DNA of 64,000 bases from Candidatus Binatia bacterium (GTDB lineage Bacteria; Desulfobacterota; Binatia; UBA9968): the NCBI GenBank assembly GCA_036004365.1, contig DASYRN010000045.1:7637-71636 (forward strand), read 5' to 3'. Position numbers and translations under genes: made by a program. Positions 21,245 through 58,636 of this stretch are shown here, in pieces. Each line of letters opens with the position of its first letter. Within the stretch, counting starts at the first letter, position 1. Under the pieces are notes generated by a model. It worked only from the letters and a program-made list of their open reading frames with translations. It was not told the origin of the DNA and did no database searches.

Positions 21245-21509
21245 GAACCGCGGAATCAGCCATTAACGATCGCGCTGAATACGGCTGACATTTGTTGAGA
21301 ATTCTTACGCATTGGCCAGAATTGTCATTTTGGACGATCTTCGTTCCATTTAAACCACTATGAGTGCGATTCTTAACTTCACCCAAAAGACCGCAAATCC
21401 TTTAAAAAACCGCGTCTTGTGTTGCTAAGCTAAAGATTGGCATGGATTGTGCTACATCTTTTCCGCTCTTGTGGGGGGTCGAAAGAGTAAAGCAGACCTC
21501 GAAATTTTA

Positions 21510-22118
21510 ATGGAAACAATCATCGCCTGCAAAACGTGCGGCCTGGTGCAGCGCATGGAGGAAGTCCAGTCGGACATAGCGGCGGAGTGTTGTCGCTGTG
21601 GGTCGATCATCGGCAAGCTCAACGTCAACAGCCTCGCACGCACGGCAGCGTTCTCGCTAGCCGCGCTGATTCTTTACGTACCGGCCAATATCTATCCGAT
21701 TCTCCATATGAATTATTACGGCGTGTATTCCGAAAGCACTGTTTGGGACGGCTGCGTGAAACTCTTTCGGGACGGCCAGTGGCTGGTGGCCGTGATCGTT
21801 TTTCTCGCCAGTATTTTGATTCCACTTTTAAAACTGCTCGGGCTTTTCTATTTGGTCGTCAGCGCGAAATTCAAATCCGCGCGTCAGCAGCAGGAACGGA
21901 CTTGGATTTACAAGACCATCGAAGTGATCGGTCCATGGGCAATGCTCGACGTCTTCCTCCTCGCGGTGCTCGTGGCGTTGGTCAAGCTGCAGCAGATCGC
22001 TACCGTCCTCCCTGGTCGGGGGCTCTTGGCGTTCACCGCCATGGTGGTGTTGACTATTTTGGCTTCGGCCAGTTTTGACCCGAGGTTGATTTGGAACGAA
22101 ACGGATGAAGAGTCATGA
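21510..22118 (+). CDS. pqiA: PqiA-like integral membrane protein, single module
   Basis: The N-terminal CxxC...CxxC Zn-ribbon-like text (ACKTCGLV...CCRCGS) followed by TM helices is typical of one PqiA repeat. ATGA overlap with the next gene. Confidence 0.7.
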   Translation: METIIACKTCGLVQRMEEVQSDIAAECCRCGSIIGKLNVNSLARTAAFSLAALILYVPANIYPILHMNYYGVYSESTVWDGCVKLFRDGQWLVAVIVFLASILIPLLKLLGLFYLVVSAKFKSARQQQERTWIYKTIEVIGPWAMLDVFLLAVLVALVKLQQIATVLPGRGLLAFTAMVVLTILASASFDPRLIWNETDEES

Positions 22119-23032
22119 GCGATTTGCAAAAAAATGCTGAAACCACCGAAGAGTTGCCCAAGGCAAAGGTCAAGATAAAGAGATGGAACTTTCCCGTCGT
22201 CTGGATTGTTCCCGTGATTGCCGCCATTGTTACAGGCTATCTTGTTTACGATCGCGTGCAGGAGTTTGGTCCGAAGATCACGATCAGGTTCAAGAACGGC
22301 AGCGGCCTTAAGATCGGCCAAACACCAATTAAGTATCGCGGCGTGCAGATTGGCGAAGTGACGGCGGTTGAATTGAGCGACGACCAGCAGAACGTGCTGG
22401 TGAAGGTACGACTGCGCCGCTCGGCGGCTTCCATTGCCCGGGAAGGAGCGGTTTTCTGGATCGTGCGTCCCGAAATGGGACTTTCAAACATCGCTGCCTT
22501 GGGGACGGTCATTACCGGACCGGAGATTGCGGTATTGCCGGGCACTGGCAAGGACCAAGCAGAATTTGTGGGTCTGGAGAGTTCGCCGGTGGTAGTAGAA
22601 GGTAATGAGCTGAAGATCGTTCTGGTCTCCGGCCGTGCCGGGTCATTGATAGCGAGTTCGCCGGTTTACTATCGGGGCGTCGAGGTAGGCACCATCCAAG
22701 ATATTCAGCTCAACAACGACGCCCGCACGGTGAACATCCACGTGTTCATCAAGCAGCGGTATGCGAACCTGGTCCGGAGCAGCTCGAAGTTTTGGAATGT
22801 AAGTGGCGTGGATGTGAGCATCGGCTTGTTCCGCGGCATGGAAATCAATATGGAATCGCTGAGATCGCTGGCGGTCGGGGGAATCGCCTTTGCCACCCCG
22901 AACGATCCAAAAGGCAAGCCGGCGAAGGACGGGATGGTATTTCCCCTTCACGACAAATCGAATAAGGAATGGTTGGAGTGGGCGCCGAAGATACCGATTC
23001 CACGGGAGAAACAGTTAGAGAAGTCGAGATAA
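22115..23032 (+). CDS. pqiB: MCE/MlaD-domain protein (PqiB-like, about two MCE domains)
   Basis: 305 aa with an N-terminal TM. Repeated MCE text (GLKIGQTPIKYRGVQIGEV ; LIASSPVYYRGVEVGTI). Confidence 0.7.
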   Translation: MSDLQKNAETTEELPKAKVKIKRWNFPVVWIVPVIAAIVTGYLVYDRVQEFGPKITIRFKNGSGLKIGQTPIKYRGVQIGEVTAVELSDDQQNVLVKVRLRRSAASIAREGAVFWIVRPEMGLSNIAALGTVITGPEIAVLPGTGKDQAEFVGLESSPVVVEGNELKIVLVSGRAGSLIASSPVYYRGVEVGTIQDIQLNNDARTVNIHVFIKQRYANLVRSSSKFWNVSGVDVSIGLFRGMEINMESLRSLAVGGIAFATPNDPKGKPAKDGMVFPLHDKSNKEWLEWAPKIPIPREKQLEKSR

Positions 23033-31636: not shown

Positions 31637-32164
31637 ATGTCGAAACGACTGATTTTCCTCCCATGGATGTTGTCTCTACTTCTGCTACCGGCCTGCATCC
31701 ATGGCCTAACGATGCACTCCATGGACGGAGAGACCTTAAGCGGAAAGTATCGTTTCGCGCGCGAAGGCAAAGGATTGATCAAGGTCATCCGATCCGATGG
31801 CGAGGTCTTGACGGGCCATTTTGTGACGGTTGGGCCGAAGGCTTTTGTCGAGAGTTTCAAGAAGGCTTTCGGCAGCGGATCTATCGTTGTCTTCGGTCCC
31901 GATGCCTCCGCTTACGGAAATGCCTTCGGAGGCACCTTTGCAAGTGCGCACGGGACTGCAGGGGCTGCCTATGGCGAGACGTTCAATACCGGCTCCGGTC
32001 AATCCACAACCGTGGTGACCGGGCCGCGTTTTTACTGGACGGCATTCCTTCAGGGCAGTGGAGGAACAACGATGGCATGTTTTTTCATCGGCTCCTCGTA
32101 TACGGGTCACGGATTTGGAAGATGTAAGAGCAACATGGGGAAGGAGTATAGTGTAGAGTTTTAA
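31637..32164 (+). CDS. putative lipoprotein, Gly-rich
   Basis: MSKRLIFLPWMLSLLLLPAC lipobox. Confidence 0.55.
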   Translation: MSKRLIFLPWMLSLLLLPACIHGLTMHSMDGETLSGKYRFAREGKGLIKVIRSDGEVLTGHFVTVGPKAFVESFKKAFGSGSIVVFGPDASAYGNAFGGTFASAHGTAGAAYGETFNTGSGQSTTVVTGPRFYWTAFLQGSGGTTMACFFIGSSYTGHGFGRCKSNMGKEYSVEF

Positions 32165-32523
32165 GATCTCTAGTCTTTTTTCAGAGGTCAAAATAAATAG
32201 TAGATGAGCGTGCTCGATCCTGCCATTGTCTCACGTTTGCGTGATTGCGACGAAGAAACAGTGGCCTGTCGGCCCGGATATCTGAGCGGTCGGGGACGGA
32301 TACTCCTCCTGCGTTGTCTCTAACCGAATTTCCGGAGAGTTGTTCATAATTGTCATATTGGACGGTTTCGGTCCACTTACCACGAGCCCTTATTCGACTT
32401 GTGAGCGGGAAATCCTTTTTAAAAACCACATATTGTATTGATAGGCCAAAATAAGGGCCTTTGGCATGAATTATGAATCTTATCCACTATATAGGCCCAT
32501 CTATCTTAAGAGAGCGATCCCTT

Positions 32524-33954
32524 ATGCGAGACGTCGCAATAGCAACCGAGGCAGCATCACTTTCCAAGGAATGTCCTGGATGTGGCGCTCTCCTGGAACT
32601 GACTCTCGAGGCGTGCTGGAAATGCGGCGGAAAAGTCGAACCGGATATTCCCACAGCGCCGTACGAAGAGAAACGACCCTTCAAGCCCTATCTAGACAGA
32701 AGCGCCGACCTTGGAAGAGAGGTCTACGAACGGCTTATCCAAGCCTTTTCAGAAGTGAATCCCCGCGAAAGACCCTGGTGTGGCATAGGGGTTAAAGCTG
32801 ACCTTCTCGCGGTATCACCAAGATCCGTGACAGTCGCGGTGATAAAGGAGCTGAGCGGGGTCAAGAAAGGCCTCGTTCATGTCTCGCAGAATTGGCGGGA
32901 ACCTTGGCAGGTAGAAACCGTCGATAGGGAGAAACATCAGATACGAAGCAATCCTTGCGAGCAGGCGGAGCGGGCGATCAGCGCTGTCAAAAGTAGTCTC
33001 AAGTCTTTTCTCAAGGCCAATGAGCAGGCTGTATTCCCGCGCATAAAGTGTTTAATCGTTTTCCCCGATGGATACGACTTTGAAGGGCCAAAGGATTTTT
33101 CCATGCTCGACCACGACGGGGTGATCACGCTGAGTCTACTAAACTTTCGTGATTTACCGGATGCGATATTACGACCGACGGACCACGAAGGACTGGATTC
33201 CCGGCAGTACAGGAAATGGATTGAAGAACTTCTAAGGAGCAACGATGAGTCCACCCTCGGGACATGGCTTGATCCGGCCTTCGATAAGCCGGAGCCGGAG
33301 CCGCCCAAGAGACAGCTCTGGCGGTTACGTTATCCGCGCCGCCGAAAAGTGCCGGCAAAGGAAGAGGAACTCTCTTGGTCAAATAGTCCGCGAAAGAGAT
33401 CGGTCCAGGCGAAATTGAAGGGGACTCGACTCAAATTTACCGTGACGGTTATCACGGGTATGCTCGTTGGAATGGTCGGATGGCAAATGTATAGTGTTGG
33501 GGAACATACCGCGCCGCCTCCACGCGCGGAAACTACCCCTGAAGTCACTCAAGCGGTGCCACCCCAAGATGTCCCGTTGTCAACGGAACTCGAGAAGGAG
33601 GAGATATTGCCTCCGCCGCAGCCAGTAGAATCCCGCGAACCGCAGGCGCCTATAGCGCCGAAAGAGGATCAACCCATCAAAGGCGCGAATAAATCTGAGG
33701 TCACCCGCACTCAGGCTCCTGGCGATTTAGAGCTCAAGCGGCAGAAGGTGGAACTCAAGATCCATGATGCTATTCTCCGTCGCGCGATCACCGGTGTGAC
33801 GGTTTACTTCGCCGGGGACACGGCTTACCTCCGCGGCCAGGTCGAGACCGAAAACCAAAAATCTGCTGCCGAAAAGGCCGCGAGGAGCGTCCCGGGGGTT
33901 AAGGAAATCCGCAATTCAATTGAGGTCAATCCCCCATCCCCTGCGGATGGCTAG
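32524..33954 (+). CDS. Zn-ribbon / NERD-like / TM / Pro-rich linker / BON domain fusion protein
   Basis: CPGCG..CWKCGG. NERD-like text ADLLAVSPRSVTVAVIKELSG....W.....NPCEQAERAISAVKSSL. TM LKFTVTVITGMLVGMVGWQMY. C-terminal BON text VTVYFAGDTAYLRGQVETENQKSAAEKAARSVPGVKEIRNSIEV. Confidence 0.65.
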   Translation: MRDVAIATEAASLSKECPGCGALLELTLEACWKCGGKVEPDIPTAPYEEKRPFKPYLDRSADLGREVYERLIQAFSEVNPRERPWCGIGVKADLLAVSPRSVTVAVIKELSGVKKGLVHVSQNWREPWQVETVDREKHQIRSNPCEQAERAISAVKSSLKSFLKANEQAVFPRIKCLIVFPDGYDFEGPKDFSMLDHDGVITLSLLNFRDLPDAILRPTDHEGLDSRQYRKWIEELLRSNDESTLGTWLDPAFDKPEPEPPKRQLWRLRYPRRRKVPAKEEELSWSNSPRKRSVQAKLKGTRLKFTVTVITGMLVGMVGWQMYSVGEHTAPPPRAETTPEVTQAVPPQDVPLSTELEKEEILPPPQPVESREPQAPIAPKEDQPIKGANKSEVTRTQAPGDLELKRQKVELKIHDAILRRAITGVTVYFAGDTAYLRGQVETENQKSAAEKAARSVPGVKEIRNSIEVNPPSPADG

Positions 33955-34030: not shown

Positions 34031-34486
34031 TCAAGTTTGATTACTAATGAACTGAAATATCTTTGCAGCGGCGTCAGCGCCGGTCGTCGTTGTCGTGTCG
34101 ATTCTTATAGTCGGATTGTTCGGCGGCTCCATTCGATGGAACATGATGTGGAGTGCTTTTTCGGATATATTCGGCTGCCGTTCTCGATTGCGCCGAAGAG
34201 CGACCTCTAAGGGGCAATCAAGAAAAACGGTTACAACTCTCTCCGCTTGTGCCCGCGCTTTGACCTGGCACCGCCATTCCTTTTTGTAAAACGTGGCGTC
34301 AAAAATTAGGAAATCCGTTCTCCTCCGATCGGGCGCCAGCGCATTGAAAAACTTCCGGTAGACCGGCGGTCTTAGCCTGTCGGAACTCAAGATCTGAACG
34401 CTGCCTAATTCAGCGAGGCGCTCGGCCAGCTTTTCTGCTATCGTACTCTTACCCGATCCGGGAATGCCGCAAAAGAGAATAATCAA
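34031..34486 (-). CDS. P-loop kinase, KTI12/PSTK-like (AAA_33-type)
   Basis: Walker A ILFCGIPGSGKST. The later text LIFDATFYKKEWRCQV...FLDCPLEVALRRNRERQPNISEKALHIMFHRMEPP resembles archaeal O-phosphoseryl-tRNA kinase / KTI12 as I recall them. Confidence 0.7.
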   Translation of the reverse strand: MIILFCGIPGSGKSTIAEKLAERLAELGSVQILSSDRLRPPVYRKFFNALAPDRRRTDFLIFDATFYKKEWRCQVKARAQAERVVTVFLDCPLEVALRRNRERQPNISEKALHIMFHRMEPPNNPTIRIDTTTTTGADAAAKIFQFISNQT

Positions 34487-34514
34487 TAAGATATGTTCGT
34501 GACGCCGCGCTGGG

Positions 34515-34772
34515 CTATCGGCGGGGTCGGGCGAGCCTCATCGCTTGCTCAATGGTGGGAATGATCTCGGGGCAACATTGCCTGGCGATTTCGAGAATGA
34601 TGCGCGCTTGGTTCTGGTCACAGGGGATCGTGTAGCCTTTAAAAAATACGCCCTCAAACGAATGATCAATTCGCGTGGCCTTGGCAATGGCCTCATAGGC
34701 GGGAGACTCAACGGGAATTCGACTCCGCAGTCGGTCAAAGTGTGGAGGAGCGACCTTAATGAATATCTCCAT
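34515..34772 (-). CDS. hypothetical protein
   Basis: 85-aa ORF between the kinase and phosphatase genes on the same strand. Confidence 0.4.
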   Translation of the reverse strand: MEIFIKVAPPHFDRLRSRIPVESPAYEAIAKATRIDHSFEGVFFKGYTIPCDQNQARIILEIARQCCPEIIPTIEQAMRLARPRR

Positions 34773-34894
34773 GGCGCCACCTCACCAAAAATACGTTAGG
34801 ATGCTCAATTCAACCTACCAAATAGGGCCGTTATTTCAATGCGGGTCCGTCAACCTTCACCGGTCGAGTTTCCCAAAACCCGCTCGTCAAGGCA

Positions 34895-35350
34895 TCACAC
34901 TCTAGTAGCAAAACGGATCGCATCGATATTAGGTAAGCAAGAGCGGCATTGGGTGACGTGTGCGACGGCGGCGTCCAAATCCCAGCCGCAGCACCAAGAG
35001 AGATACGCGACCGCGACCGTAGGAGATCGGCCAGCGCCGGCGGAGCAATGGAGATAGACTGTATGGCCAGACTCCATGAGCTCGTTTAGCGCGGACACGC
35101 ACGCCGGGAGCTTGTCTTGCAGATCGACTGGGTCCAAGTCGCGCACTGGGACACGACAAGGGTGAATGCGGCAGATTTGGTAGTGGGTTGCCAGCGAATT
35201 CCAATCCAGGCTAAAGTGCTGCATGTCCTCGTCGGTTTGTAGATTGAGCACAGCCGAAATGGCGGCATCGCGCTTTAATATCTCGATGTCACCAGCGCTT
35301 CCTGGGTAGGAACCGACAAAGAGTTTGGAAAGAATCTGATGGTAATCCAT
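34895..35350 (-). CDS. dual-specificity (Cys-based) phosphatase, DSP domain only
   Basis: Active site HCSAGAGRSPT (HCx5R[ST]). Flanking text NLQTDEDMQHF, VRDLDPVDL..KLPA and RSCLPNIDAIRFAT resembles plant SEX4/LSF glucan-phosphatase DSP domains from memory. Confidence 0.8.
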   Translation of the reverse strand: MDYHQILSKLFVGSYPGSAGDIEILKRDAAISAVLNLQTDEDMQHFSLDWNSLATHYQICRIHPCRVPVRDLDPVDLQDKLPACVSALNELMESGHTVYLHCSAGAGRSPTVAVAYLSWCCGWDLDAAVAHVTQCRSCLPNIDAIRFATRV

Positions 35351-35444
35351 AGCTTGGGTAGGTCGTAAGGAGTGAGGCGTAAACAGGAGAACCCCTTGCA
35401 CGTTTTACGTTTCACTAGCCATGACTATCATCCTGACGTTACGG

Positions 35445-39934: not shown

Positions 39935-40229
39935 TTACGCGGATCCGGGATCGTTGTCATCGTCGGTTGATGGTTTTCTAGAACGGACGTTGAATTGGAT
40001 CTTGGATAGTTCCGAGTCCAGCCACCGCATCCTTTTGAGAGTATCCTCTCGGAAAAGCTGTGGACTGTCGTAGCCGCGGTACACTTCACACCTCTGGGTT
40101 GTGACTCCAGGTAAACGGAAAGCTTACACAATGAATCCGGCGTAGCTTGTCGGGCAACCCTATCAATGCGCAATGGCTGTGCCAGACCAGAAGATTCGTA
40201 TTATCGAATAGTTGTAAAAGTTCAGCCAT
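39935..40229 (-). pseudogene. frameshifted paralogue of 37377-37670
   Basis: ATG at 40229 opens a 47-codon frame ending ..SHNPEV*. A shifted frame continues (C)EVYRGYDSPQLFREDTLKRMRWLDSELSK..., matching VVRGYDSPELFREDSWLRR of the intact copy. Confidence 0.4.
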
Positions 40230-57697: not shown

Positions 57698-58636
57698 TTA
57701 GACCATGGGGAGCACTTCCTGTGCCAACCAGTCCAATCGTTTTAAAGTCTCTGCCGGACCAGGACTCCGGACATCGAAAATAAGGCAATTCACTCCAGCC
57801 TTTTGATAGTCTCTCACGTCGGATGCGACCTGCCCCGCGCTGCCGATGAATCTTCTTCGTCGCCCCGCCTGAGCTTCGACTTCCCGATCAAACAACGAGG
57901 CTTTGAAAGCTACGCGGATTTCGCTCGGATTCCTGCCTGCCGCTTGAGCGTACTCAGCGAGTGTTTCCAACTTTCTTTCAAGATCTGCCGGTTCCAGAGG
58001 TACGGTCGGCACGCCTCCTATGGGATGCCATCCATCCCCTAACTCAGCGGCGCGGCGCAGAGCCCGGTTGCTATGCCCTCCGATCCAAATCGGAATGTGA
58101 GGCTTTTGCGCTGGCTTCGGTAGAAATGCCAAGTCGGAAAACTTGCAATAAGTGCCCTTAAAGGTGGGATTCTCCTTTGTCCAGAGCTCCTTAAAAGCTT
58201 TAATGTATTCGTCCGTAACACGGCCACGATCCTCAAACGGAGGAGCTCCAACAAGCAGGAATTCTTCTTTCATCCATCCGACTCCCAATCCCAGAATCAC
58301 TCGGCCGCCTGAAAGGAAGTCCAGGGTTGAAAGCATCTTGGCGACAACGACAGGAGGGCGATAAGGGGCAATCATGACGCTGGCGACGAAGGAGATGCGC
58401 TGAGTGGCGCTGGCAAGAAACGCCATGACCGTCATTTGATCGAGATGATGACCTTTTCCGGGATACTTCTTGTCTACAGTATAAGGATAAGGGGAAGCGA
58501 TGTTTCTCGGGATGACGATGTGATCAGCGACGGTTACACAGAAAAAATCCAATTCCTCCGCGCGCTTAACGAAATGGATCAGATCTTCGGGTTTTACTCG
58601 GGGGTCGGACACAGCTAGGTGAAGCCCATAGTCCAT
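57698..58636 (-). CDS. LLM-class F420-dependent oxidoreductase
   Basis: 312 aa. VADHIVIP......LDQMTVMAFLASAT.RI.F..SVMI.PYRPP...AK.L.TLD.LSGGR..LG.GVGW fits the LLM family. Confidence 0.8.
   Translation of the reverse strand: MDYGLHLAVSDPRVKPEDLIHFVKRAEELDFFCVTVADHIVIPRNIASPYPYTVDKKYPGKGHHLDQMTVMAFLASATQRISFVASVMIAPYRPPVVVAKMLSTLDFLSGGRVILGLGVGWMKEEFLLVGAPPFEDRGRVTDEYIKAFKELWTKENPTFKGTYCKFSDLAFLPKPAQKPHIPIWIGGHSNRALRRAAELGDGWHPIGGVPTVPLEPADLERKLETLAEYAQAAGRNPSEIRVAFKASLFDREVEAQAGRRRRFIGSAGQVASDVRDYQKAGVNCLIFDVRSPGPAETLKRLDWLAQEVLPMV

Follow-up and report, generated by a model that had tools for sequence, protein, structure and literature searches.

The window analysed here is a 64,000-nucleotide stretch of DNA from a Candidatus Binatia bacterium (all coordinates below refer to its forward strand). 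A coding sequence at 32524..33954, stop codon included, was delineated from the open reading frame, profile matches and homologues, and encodes a protein of 476 residues, referred to below as the NERD-BON protein. The open reading frame called at this place begins further upstream (32473..33954). Two ATGs precede position 32524, one out of frame at 32466 and one in frame at 32473, and both lie within a conserved sigma54-like promoter element described below. ATG 32473 was therefore ruled out as the start codon. Taking into account also the Shine-Dalgarno-like sequence AAGAGAG at 32508-32514, ATG 32524, from which the original prediction had begun the gene, is the better choice. Several database entries for this family carry wrong start codons, and one of them translates the promoter.

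The fusion encoded by this gene is real. From the N- to the C-terminus, the protein consists of a C4 zinc ribbon, a divergent NERD-type restriction-endonuclease fold, a basic stretch, a single transmembrane (TM) helix, a Pro/acidic spacer and a BON domain; Pfam matches, the TM segment and alignments of homologues all agreed with the domain order that had been proposed. The zinc ribbon (residues 17-34; 32572..32625), predicted to be cytoplasmic, follows the pattern CPGC-x10-CWKC, with the cysteines arranged as C17-P-G-C20 and C31-W-K-C34. These Cys residues are kept in 22-29 of the 25-32 homologues aligned per position, and the ribbon is present in 12/12 distinct upstream reading frames inspected. 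One distant branch, P0057/P0060, does not have it. When Pfam zinc-ribbon profiles were run on the 476-residue protein, all matches fell under the cutoff (DZR, E=0.013). The ribbon is followed by the NERD-type core (residues ~57-181; 32692..33066) and by a C-terminal subdomain particular to the family (residues ~182-254; 33067..33285), which also belongs to the cytoplasmic module and was recognized by its invariant alignment columns. The motifs of this subdomain, FPDGYxFEGPK, RxW and DDSxxGTWLDPAFD, are kept in the distant branch too, and a Pfam search found no model over these residues.

A highly basic juxtamembrane stretch (residues 263-302; 33310..33429; net charge +11) leads into the TM helix (residues 303-323; 33430..33492), the one hydrophobic segment in the Kyte-Doolittle profile. 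The maximum over 19 residues is 1.36, against a family median of 1.74, and W320 within the helix is invariant in the family. Ten Lys/Arg residues are found in the 30 residues preceding the helix and one after it (family median, 6 versus 3). By the positive-inside rule, this bias suggests a single-pass protein with its N-terminus in the cytoplasm and its BON domain in the periplasm. The single helix had been foreseen correctly, and the orientation that came with it is supported as a prediction. The spacer (residues 324-398; 33493..33717), delimited by composition, pLDDT and family lengths and predicted to be periplasmic, contains 16 Pro and 11 Glu among 77 residues and is disordered (pLDDT below 50). 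Its length had been given as roughly 90 residues; we measured 75-78 in the window protein, while the family median is 89, with most members at 84-95. Across the family the length of the spacer is kept and its sequence is not. The protein ends in a helix and the BON domain (residues 399-470; 33718..33933), also predicted to be periplasmic. Profile PF04972 matched residues 412-470 with E=3.6e-11 (43.6 bits, gathering cutoff 27) and matched 28/28 family members, which confirmed the proposed BON domain.

Many anti-sigma factors share a layout of this kind, with a cytoplasmic Zn-binding N-terminus, a single TM helix, a Pro-rich spacer and a periplasmic sensor domain. By this resemblance, the protein could be an anti-sigma-like factor or a substrate of regulated proteolysis, whose zinc module keeps a regulator bound until the BON domain senses an envelope signal and cleavage follows. 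We regard this as very improbable, as no sigma-factor gene is adjacent at any locus examined, no zf-HC2/RskA-type profile matches, and the cytoplasmic module is a 200-residue restriction-endonuclease fold rather than an anti-sigma domain.

The NERD-type core was then considered in terms of catalysis. PF08378 matched residues 92-181 with E=8e-5. With 23.6 bits where the gathering score is 22.1, the NERD assignment made originally is upheld, though marginally, and the match is partial (profile positions 39-111 of 111). In the family, 14 of 28 members matched the profile at E<=0.01, the best at 3.5e-6. A profile of the domain found nothing meaningful among the sequences of solved structures (best E=0.3). 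The structural neighbours of the cytoplasmic domain are mostly defence or restriction nucleases, and the module has the PD-(D/E)xK restriction-endonuclease-like fold. ZwsA, a proven NERD nuclease, needs E535, D567, E580 and K582 (bioRxiv 10.64898/2026.04.06.716636). We set the catalytic register by the D-(13)-E-x-K spacing of ZwsA (D567, E580, K582), which places D93, V106 and K108 at the degenerate site of the window protein. The Glu of the ExK motif is thus replaced by Val while the Lys is retained. It had been proposed that the ExK motif is missing; the Glu is indeed absent, but the register used at that time was two residues off, and K108 is in place.

Among 46 homologues, position 93 is Asp in 18 and Gly in 28. 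Position 106 is occupied by Val (13), Asp (24), Ala (7), Glu (1) or Lys (1), and position 108 by Lys (24), Arg (14) or other residues (8), being Ile, Val or Phe in the distant branch. The full D...(D/E)xK set, in the form D..DxK/R, occurs in only 4/46. In contrast to these variable positions, the rest of the domain is strongly conserved: R83, R125, K175, D182, K190, R230, D250 and D254 show a conservation of 98% or higher in homologues, C86 and E149 one of about 96-98%, and E109 is nearly invariant in the family. The E...D...ExK set proven in ZwsA is not conserved in the NERD-BON family. As no consistent catalytic set is present, the fold is most likely a binding module, for nucleic acid or for a protein, that has no cutting activity, and the proposal that the cytoplasmic nuclease-like module is probably inactive gains support. 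Catalytic residues of PD-(D/E)xK enzymes are known to migrate within the fold. Taking into account this migration, the presence of D93, K108 and E109, and a second subclade that carries E91/D106/(K or R)108, some members may have residual nuclease activity.

Searches with the whole protein found ~50 clusters in 5.8 billion, and a profile of the cytoplasmic domain matched only 20 of 1.84 billion representatives. A pattern scan of GTDB confirmed 5 of 185,579 species (Binatia, 'Deltaproteobacteria' and Syntrophobacteraceae MAGs). The family occurs only in a narrow set of uncultured bacteria from soil and sediment and is uncharacterised; the only existing names are 'BON domain-containing protein' and 'BON domain/Nuclease-related domain'. 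About 50 full-length homologues share 40-91% identity with the window protein, and the architecture is kept even in distant members, down to relatives at E about 1e-9. Chance can be excluded as the origin of the architecture, because 98 positions reach a conservation of 90% or more among these homologues, with 97 of them retained in the window protein. With both the NERD and the BON profile matching, and with an architecture that is uncommon and carries no functional annotation, the description of the protein as an unusual fusion stands.

Compared with its closest relative, the gene as a whole has a dN/dS of 0.53, while most neighbouring genes are at 0.16-0.30. The elevated value is mainly due to the spacer (0.9), the BON domain being at 0.26, and conserved positions of the coding sequence are under purifying selection. 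Together with a deletion in the -12 promoter element described below, this value had hinted at gene decay in this lineage. Decay was ruled out for the coding part, taking into account the 97 of 98 conserved positions that are kept, the omega of 0.26 in BON and the location of most of the excess in the linker.

We also examined the genes around the NERD-BON gene. The convergent kinase frame lies 76 nt away, not 77 bp as first counted, and the kinase/phosphatase genes are not co-transcribed with the NERD-BON gene. The P-loop kinase and DSP phosphatase neighbours are kept only in L004, the locus of a 91%-identical relative, and are absent at L001/L002/L009, L003, L005-L008, L010 and L011. The suggestion that the gene forms a functional unit with this operon was therefore rejected. 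An all-against-all comparison of neighbouring reading frames found no gene conserved across independent loci; the NERD-BON gene stands alone. A multi-GAF protein, considered as a possible regulator, is encoded near it at three loci and is truncated in all three.

A defence context had also been suggested. When PADLOC models were searched at E<=1, neither the NERD-BON protein nor two of three neighbours gave a match, and the kinase neighbour gave weak P-loop matches only (E >= 6e-4). The neighbourhoods of the family loci examined carry metabolic, transport and housekeeping genes, with no defence genes seen, leaving the defence reading unsupported. These results bear on the possibility that the protein is an active membrane-anchored nuclease, an anti-phage or DNA/RNA-processing effector triggered when the BON domain senses an envelope perturbation. 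The structural neighbours, the D93, K108 and E109 of the window protein, the full residue set in a few homologues and the existence of true defence nucleases among NERD domains, such as ZwsA, all speak for it. On the other hand, the catalytic positions are precisely the variable ones, Lys108 gives way to hydrophobic residues in the distant branch, PADLOC and the neighbourhoods offer nothing, and the family is clade-restricted with partial synteny rather than patchy and mobile. We consider such a nuclease quite improbable. For annotation, this means that the label 'NERD' should not be equated here with 'nuclease' or 'defence'.

Upstream of the gene lies a conserved cassette of ~180 bp (32324..32501), a candidate enhancer with a sigma54-type promoter. 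It consists of conserved blocks separated by variable spacers and is present at every family locus for which upstream DNA was available. An nhmmer profile of the cassette detected the NERD-BON copy with E=2e-29, this copy itself being among the source sequences of the profile. Within the cassette lies an imperfect palindrome, ATTGTC-N6-GACGGT (32349..32366), that reads ATTGTC-N6-GACAAT in relatives and is a candidate site for an activator (enhancer-binding protein); a search with the pattern AATTGT-N6-GGAM found it nowhere but at the expected place. The stretch from this palindrome to the -24 element contains the A/T block TTTTTAAAAAC (32416..32426), whose AAAA core is conserved in all cassette copies and which, judging from the usual layout of sigma54 promoters, may be a DNA-bending site of the IHF type. 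The sigma54-like -24/-12 element itself, TGGCATGAATTATGAA (32462..32477), was recognized by alignment with relatives. The -24/-12 pattern has three further occurrences in the window, where 0.09 would be expected.

The cassette resembles enhancer-dependent sigma54 promoters in its palindrome, placed about 100 nt ahead of the -24 element, in its A/T block and in the sequence TGGCAY-N5-GTGCT, found in relatives and in a second copy ahead of pqiAB, compared with the consensus TGGCAC-N5-TTGCW. It differs in that conservation extends over the full 180 bp, to a degree unusual for binding sites alone, and in that the NERD-BON copy in the window has no C at -12. This copy keeps the GG at -24, whereas a 3-nt deletion, which alignments show to be common to the window and L004, has turned the 'GC' at -12 into 'GA'. 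The -24 GG and -12 GC with consensus spacing occur at 10/12 loci scanned, in three copies of the cassette detected subsequently and in the window's copy ahead of pqiAB. With these features the cassette may depend on sigma54; for the NERD-BON copies of the window and L004 it is uncertain because of the lost -12 C. A signature-motif search of the 64-kb window detected neither a sigma54 gene nor an enhancer-binding protein. The idea that the cassette is a leader RNA was also tried. Rfam gave no match on the upstream region, and the idea was rejected because RNAalifold on 13 copies found neither structure nor covariation.

The second copy of the cassette (21296..21480) contains an intact TGGCATGGATTGTGCT at 21438-21453 and was detected by nhmmer with E=2e-43, again as one of the source sequences of the profile. 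It shares 79% identity with the cassette ahead of the NERD-BON gene at L005 and recurs in three independently made assemblies of a close relative (95%). Behind it lies a lipid-transport operon (21510..23032) of pqiA (21510-22118) and an MCE/pqiB-like gene (22115-23032), identified with Pfam (PqiA, E=3.3e-54; MlaD, E=1.8e-28). The cassette is not a general feature of pqiAB, since five loci with PqiA identities of 75-83% are without it and its presence was confirmed only for the 95% relative. The NERD-BON gene and pqiAB would be co-regulated in this lineage. In a metagenome scan with a strict cassette pattern, only 3 of the 35 matches were true copies, the rest being chance; 3/3 true copies lie upstream of family members, and the scan found no further members of the regulon.

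On balance, we lean towards the view that the NERD-BON protein works without catalysis, as a tether or sensor across the envelope, and belongs to a regulon for envelope and lipid homeostasis; it would be an envelope factor and not a defence nuclease. It would be a single-pass inner-membrane protein spanning the cell envelope, with its cytoplasmic zinc ribbon and non-cutting NERD fold holding a cytoplasmic partner, either nucleic acid or protein. The Pro/acidic spacer, of a conserved length of about 75-95 residues, would be long enough to cross the periplasm if extended. By analogy with DolP, the BON end may then bind envelope phospholipid, probably in the inner leaflet of the outer membrane. 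The sigma54 enhancer-type cassette would drive the NERD-BON gene and, in this lineage, pqiAB as well.

A more specific version of the tether or sensor is a membrane-tethered one-component transcription regulator with a ToxR/CadC-like logic, in which the ribbon and the inactivated nuclease fold bind specific DNA while BON senses the state of the membrane or its lipids. We find this unlikely: there is no recognizable DNA-binding motif or profile, no target sites emerged, the C-terminal cytoplasmic subdomain is acidic (pI 4.6), and the P0057/P0060 branch does without the ribbon. It is somewhat less likely still that the family forms a class of its own among one-component signal transducers, one that acts across the envelope. 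Here BON would report on the lipids of the outer membrane or periplasm. The TM helix and a spacer of calibrated length would couple it to a repurposed, non-cutting nuclease fold and zinc ribbon that bind DNA or RNA directly, within a sigma54 regulon shared with MCE lipid transport.

If the tether or sensor reading is true, the protein would be a compact case in which a nuclease fold, physically coupled to a lipid-binding domain in the periplasm, has been recruited to a non-catalytic task at the membrane. From the cassette one would expect a sigma54 activator and a small regulon, with pqiAB among its members at least in this lineage; a heterologous host would make this testable although Binatia are uncultured.

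To our knowledge, only one membrane-anchored degenerate NERD protein has been studied, SmdA of Staphylococcus aureus, and its mechanism is unknown. SmdA is monocistronic, localizes to the septum and acts in cell division and envelope morphology, and its function depends on conserved non-catalytic residues of the NERD domain and on membrane attachment (PMC9040797). Compared by published description, SmdA and the NERD-BON protein both have a single TM helix and a cytoplasmic NERD-like domain in which several canonical residues are missing, and both are encoded by monocistronic genes. Unlike the NERD-BON protein, SmdA is a Firmicutes protein with an N-terminal TM helix and almost no extracellular part, and has neither zinc ribbon nor BON domain. 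The likeness raises the possibility of a cell-division or morphogenesis factor whose NERD domain contacts the division or cell-wall machinery while BON targets the septal envelope. The BON proteins DolP and BonA are described as localizing to the divisome, and at one locus, L006, a SPOR-domain gene lies upstream of the NERD-BON gene. However, the orientation is opposite to that of SmdA, the loci compared have no dcw or division genes conserved around the NERD-BON gene, and the link to sigma54 and pqiAB favours stress or lipid homeostasis over housekeeping division. A role in division therefore seems rather doubtful, and the tether or sensor remains our preferred reading.

The roles of BON domains are poorly understood. 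The NERD-BON protein shares with DolP (YraP), OsmY and BonA the BON domain, an expected periplasmic location and the theme of envelope homeostasis, and NCBIfam reports weak similarity of its BON part to the BON segments of OsmY and ArfA. The BON of DolP is described as binding phospholipid (PMC7806268). DolP, OsmY and BonA carry one or two BON domains, lack a cytoplasmic part and are either soluble or lipoproteins, whereas the NERD-BON protein has an inner-membrane anchor, a long spacer and a large cytoplasmic module. With ZwsA it shares the Pfam family (at a borderline score here), the PD-(D/E)xK fold and the D-(13)-x-x-K spacing; it differs in having Val for the Glu of ExK, in catalytic positions that vary freely within the family, in its membrane anchor and in the lack of a defence context.

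ExeA/GspA-type proteins combine a cytoplasmic AAA ATPase, a TM helix and a periplasmic envelope-binding domain. P0051 is an ExeA-like-BON protein whose BON domain is 45% identical to that of the window protein, and it shows that the TM-linker-BON module is reused with another cytoplasmic domain. The cytoplasmic module of P0051 and the ExeA/GspA-type proteins is an ATPase and not a nuclease fold, but their design is the same as in the NERD-BON protein: one TM helix and a spacer join the module in the cytoplasm to a periplasmic domain that binds, or in the NERD-BON protein is predicted to bind, a layer of the envelope.

The original prediction placed the start of the NERD-BON gene at the ATG at 32524, and we also preferred this codon, which yields a protein of 476 aa (32524-33954, + strand). 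The ORF listing of the window gives 32473..33954 (+). The two ATGs further upstream, one out of frame (32466) and one in frame (32473), both lie within a conserved promoter-like element, and an AAGAGAG run precedes the ATG at 32524 at a spacing that fits a ribosome-binding site. The public entry of one homolog, P0004, begins with MNCESYPLY..., which appears to be the translated conserved promoter/leader, a gene-calling error. Another homolog, P0033 (L006, 7659-8001), was called too short, so that the zinc ribbon encoded in its DNA was left out. Directly upstream of the NERD-BON gene is a 175-aa ORF (31637-32164, +) that has a signal of the lipoprotein type (…LLLLPAC) and matches no Pfam family. 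It is common to the loci L004 and L005 (there 3.5 kb from the gene) and missing from the other loci.

The predicted domain make-up was borne out in substance. Pfam recognized BON at residues 412-470 (E=3.6e-11, 43.6 bits against a cutoff of 27) and NERD at residues 92-181 (E=8e-5, 23.6 bits against 22.1), the latter over profile positions 39-111 only. Zinc-ribbon profiles of Pfam scored under their cutoffs, and the only NCBIfam matches were weak ones, to BON segments of OsmY and ArfA. The single transmembrane (TM) helix corresponds to one hydrophobic segment, residues 303-323. With 10 Lys/Arg in the preceding 30 residues and 1 in the following 30, an N-in/C-out orientation is indicated. The 77 residues after the segment contain 16 Pro and 11 Glu. 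Three details had to be amended: the linker measured 75-78 rather than about 90 aa, the gap to the convergent ORF was 76 nt and not 77 bp, and the register assigned to the lost ExK, the last part of the PD-(D/E)xK catalytic motif, was two residues off when ZwsA spacing is the reference.

ZwsA, a proven NERD nuclease, uses E535, D567, E580 and K582 (bioRxiv 10.64898/2026.04.06.716636). Its D-(13)-E-x-K spacing identifies D93, V106 and K108 as the equivalents in the window protein, with Val in place of the acidic residue of ExK. Among 46 homologs, position 93 is D in 18 and G in 28, position 106 is V in 13, D in 24, A in 7, and E and K in one each, and position 108 is K in 24, R in 14 and other residues in eight. 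The full D..DxK/R set occurs in only four. Members of the distant branch have I, V or F at position 108. On the other hand, R83, R125, K175, D182, K190, R230, D250 and D254 of the same domain are at least 98% conserved in the homolog alignment, C86 and E149 are conserved at approximately 96-98%, and P84, W85, W128, P144, F180-P181-D182, R230, W232, T247 and L249 are invariant superfamily-wide. Selection thus preserves the fold and further surfaces of the domain rather than the classical active site. The site covaries: one subclade has K91/D93/V106 and another has E91/G93/D106, and E109 is nearly constant. In the PD-(D/E)xK superfamily, catalytic residues are known to migrate, and some members may therefore have nuclease activity. 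PADLOC profiles gave no match to the NERD-BON protein, and the neighbourhoods of the family loci contained no defence genes. We consider it very unlikely that the protein is an active membrane nuclease or defence effector.

In a full-length AF2 model, confidence was limited to the cytoplasmic core and BON, while a model of the domain alone (residues 45-262, 32 sequences) reached a pTM of 0.75, with core pLDDT values of 80-92. The core of the restriction endonuclease-like (RE) fold has a basic pI of 9.2, the family-specific subdomain C-terminal to it an acidic one of 4.6, and the juxtamembrane stretch carries a charge of +11. A membrane-bound DNA-binding regulator resembling ToxR is the likeliest of the rival readings, and we regard it as unlikely.

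We next compared the coding sequence with that of L004, the locus of a 91%-identical relative. The dN/dS of the NERD-BON gene was 0.53, and among the 12 syntenic neighbours ten lay at 0.16-0.30, HU at 0 and a DUF2845 ORF, aligned in part, at 0.63. The excess arises mainly in the spacer between TM helix and BON (0.9) and in stretches that differ at very few sites; for BON the value was 0.26. In the other 49 homologs, 98 positions are conserved to 90% or more, and the window protein retains 97 of these, the sole change being I to M. The coding sequence is intact and constrained, which speaks against its decay in this lineage. dS was very uneven along the gene (window 32524-33954 against L004 4395-5825), 0.028 in the cytoplasmic part and 0.246 in BON, a difference that a recombination mosaic, or just the low number of changes, could explain.

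Across 53 family members, the hydrophobic segment had a median Kyte-Doolittle value of 1.74, with 6 Lys/Arg before it and 3 after. For the spacer that follows, the median length is 89 aa, with most members at 84-95 aa; its sequence is weakly conserved, with 12% Pro and 16% acidic residues. Retention of length without retention of sequence fits a spacer that bridges a set distance; approximately 90 extended residues, at roughly 0.3 nm per residue, would span a distance on the scale of the periplasm. A protein outside the family, P0051 (567 aa, ENA metagenome), joins an ExeA/GspA-like AAA_22 ATPase, via a TM helix and a linker, to a BON that is 45% identical to that of the window protein. The design of cytoplasmic module, TM helix, spacer and BON is thus modular and is combined with different cytoplasmic domains. 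An anti-sigma-like substrate of proteolysis is the least likely of the rival readings and seems highly improbable.

A search of 5.8 billion clusters provided about 50 full-length homologs (40-91% identity), all from metagenomes or MAGs, whose fullest database names are 'BON domain-containing protein' (Candidatus Binatia, 'Deltaproteobacteria') or 'BON domain/Nuclease-related domain'. An exhaustive search of 1.84 billion representatives with a profile restricted to the cytoplasmic domain (alignment A2) gave only 20 proteins at E<=0.001, and no ordinary NERD protein was among them. The distant matches (E ~1e-32 to 1e-9) keep the order of cytoplasmic module, TM helix, long Pro-rich spacer and BON, usually with the zinc ribbon at the front and once with an SH3 domain in the spacer. 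A pattern scan of GTDB, with one genome for each of 185,579 species, identified five genomes with a confirmed relative, from Binatia, 'Deltaproteobacteria' and Syntrophobacteraceae MAGs. The shared order and the sparse matches indicate that the fusion is old, strictly maintained and restricted to a small group of uncultured bacteria. Our literature search found no paper naming both 'NERD domain' and 'BON domain', and a nuclease partner is absent from a review of BON-protein architectures.

Concerning genomic context, the original prediction had suggested a link with the convergent kinase/phosphatase operon. Its strand carries, within 34031-35401 (-), a P-loop kinase of small size (AAA_33/KTI12/PSTK-like, 151 aa), an 85-aa ORF that matches no family and a phosphatase of dual specificity (DSPc, 168 aa). 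These three genes accompany the NERD-BON gene in L004 only; they are missing from the loci of P0008, P0037, P0006, P0033 and P0043 and from those of the GTDB genomes. When neighbouring ORFs of 13 loci were compared all against all, the only clusters common to at least four were the NERD-BON gene and overlapping shadow ORFs, the neighbourhoods holding transporters, amidohydrolases, glyoxalases, methyltransferases and similar genes. The adjacency is residual synteny between close relatives, and the NERD-BON gene stands alone. In three loci of the more distant clade, a very large multi-GAF protein (also DUF3369) lies 0.5-7 kb downstream of the family member (L003 16589-17479, L007 14396-17404, L010 4940-6148), each interrupted by a contig end.

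The noncoding DNA upstream of the gene can be aligned even between loci that encode proteins of just 40-60% identity. This cassette consists of four blocks, separated by spacers that differ in length and sequence: TTGGCCAGAATTGTCAt.TTGGACAATCTTCG, containing the palindrome ATTGTC-N6-GACAAT; TTTAAAAAC; CTTGT.TTGCTAGGCCAAAA; and TGGCAY-N5-GTGCTGAA, which fits the sigma54 consensus TGGCAC-N5-TTGCW. Ten of the first 12 loci contain the pattern TGGCAYN5KTGCK a single time and in the corresponding position; the three cassette copies found later (L025, L026, L039) have it as well. A leader RNA was considered and rejected: Rfam gave no match to the upstream region, and RNAalifold on 13 copies returned six trivial pairs (-4.2 kcal/mol) with no compensatory change. 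The conservation thus lies in the DNA itself, and the blocks are arranged as in an enhancer-dependent sigma54 promoter. Within the cassette (L008 and the window copies), CCACTAT/ATAGTGG recurs three times, and in L008 (154-169 / 288-303) a 16-nt inverted half-site copy of the palindrome lies directly downstream of the -12 element, suggesting that putative regulator sites flank the promoter. In the sigma54-like element of the window (32462-32477) and of L004 (4336-4351), a 3-nt deletion turns the -12 GC into GA; all other copies retain GTGC.

When the window was searched with a cassette profile (nhmmer) to which both of its copies had contributed, exactly two cassettes were found, one before the NERD-BON gene (32324-32501) and one at 21296-21480 (+). 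The latter, with an intact sigma54-type TGGCATGGATTGTGCT, precedes a pqiA/MCE-PqiB-like operon (21510-23032, +; pqiA E=3.3e-54, MCE/PqiB-like E=1.8e-28), so that in the lineage of the window the cassette has also been placed before a lipid-transport operon, implying co-regulation there. This copy is 79% identical to the cassette that L005, from another organism, carries before its family member, and only 61% to the NERD-BON copy of the window; three independent assemblies of a close relative contain it too, at 95% identity. Five pqiAB loci whose PqiA is 75-83% identical lack it, although one of these has its own perfect sigma54 consensus. A metagenome collection scanned with a strict cassette pattern gave 35 matches including three true copies, all before family members, and the cassette thus belongs to the NERD-BON family. 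Elsewhere in the window, TGGCAYN5KTGCK matched three times (21438, 40169, 57711) against 0.09 expected by chance, suggesting that the organism uses sigma54 promoters widely; two matches lack the rest of the cassette (40169-40184, TGGCACAGCCATTGCG, and 57711-57726, TGGCACAGGAAGTGCT; - strand).

Each part of the protein belongs to a known kind. Together they form an undescribed architecture that is very rare, strictly conserved and accompanied by a defined regulatory element. The family occurs in a narrow range of uncultured bacteria, and its function remains a proposal. The best-supported reading is a non-catalytic trans-envelope protein, in which BON would sit in the periplasm on a length-calibrated spacer and the repurposed nuclease fold with its zinc ribbon in the cytoplasm, expressed from an enhancer-type promoter that in this lineage would be shared with pqiAB. 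By analogy with DolP and SmdA, it would act as a tether or sensor coupling the state of the envelope or its lipids to a cytoplasmic partner. In this general form we regard the proposal as probable on balance, and any particular partner as much less so. A division factor of the SmdA type is distinctly unlikely; like the ToxR-like regulator, it would refine the trans-envelope reading, not contradict it. In DolP, BON binds phospholipid (PMC7806268). With SmdA, which acts in division and envelope morphology (PMC9040797), our protein shares a membrane anchor and a degenerate NERD domain.
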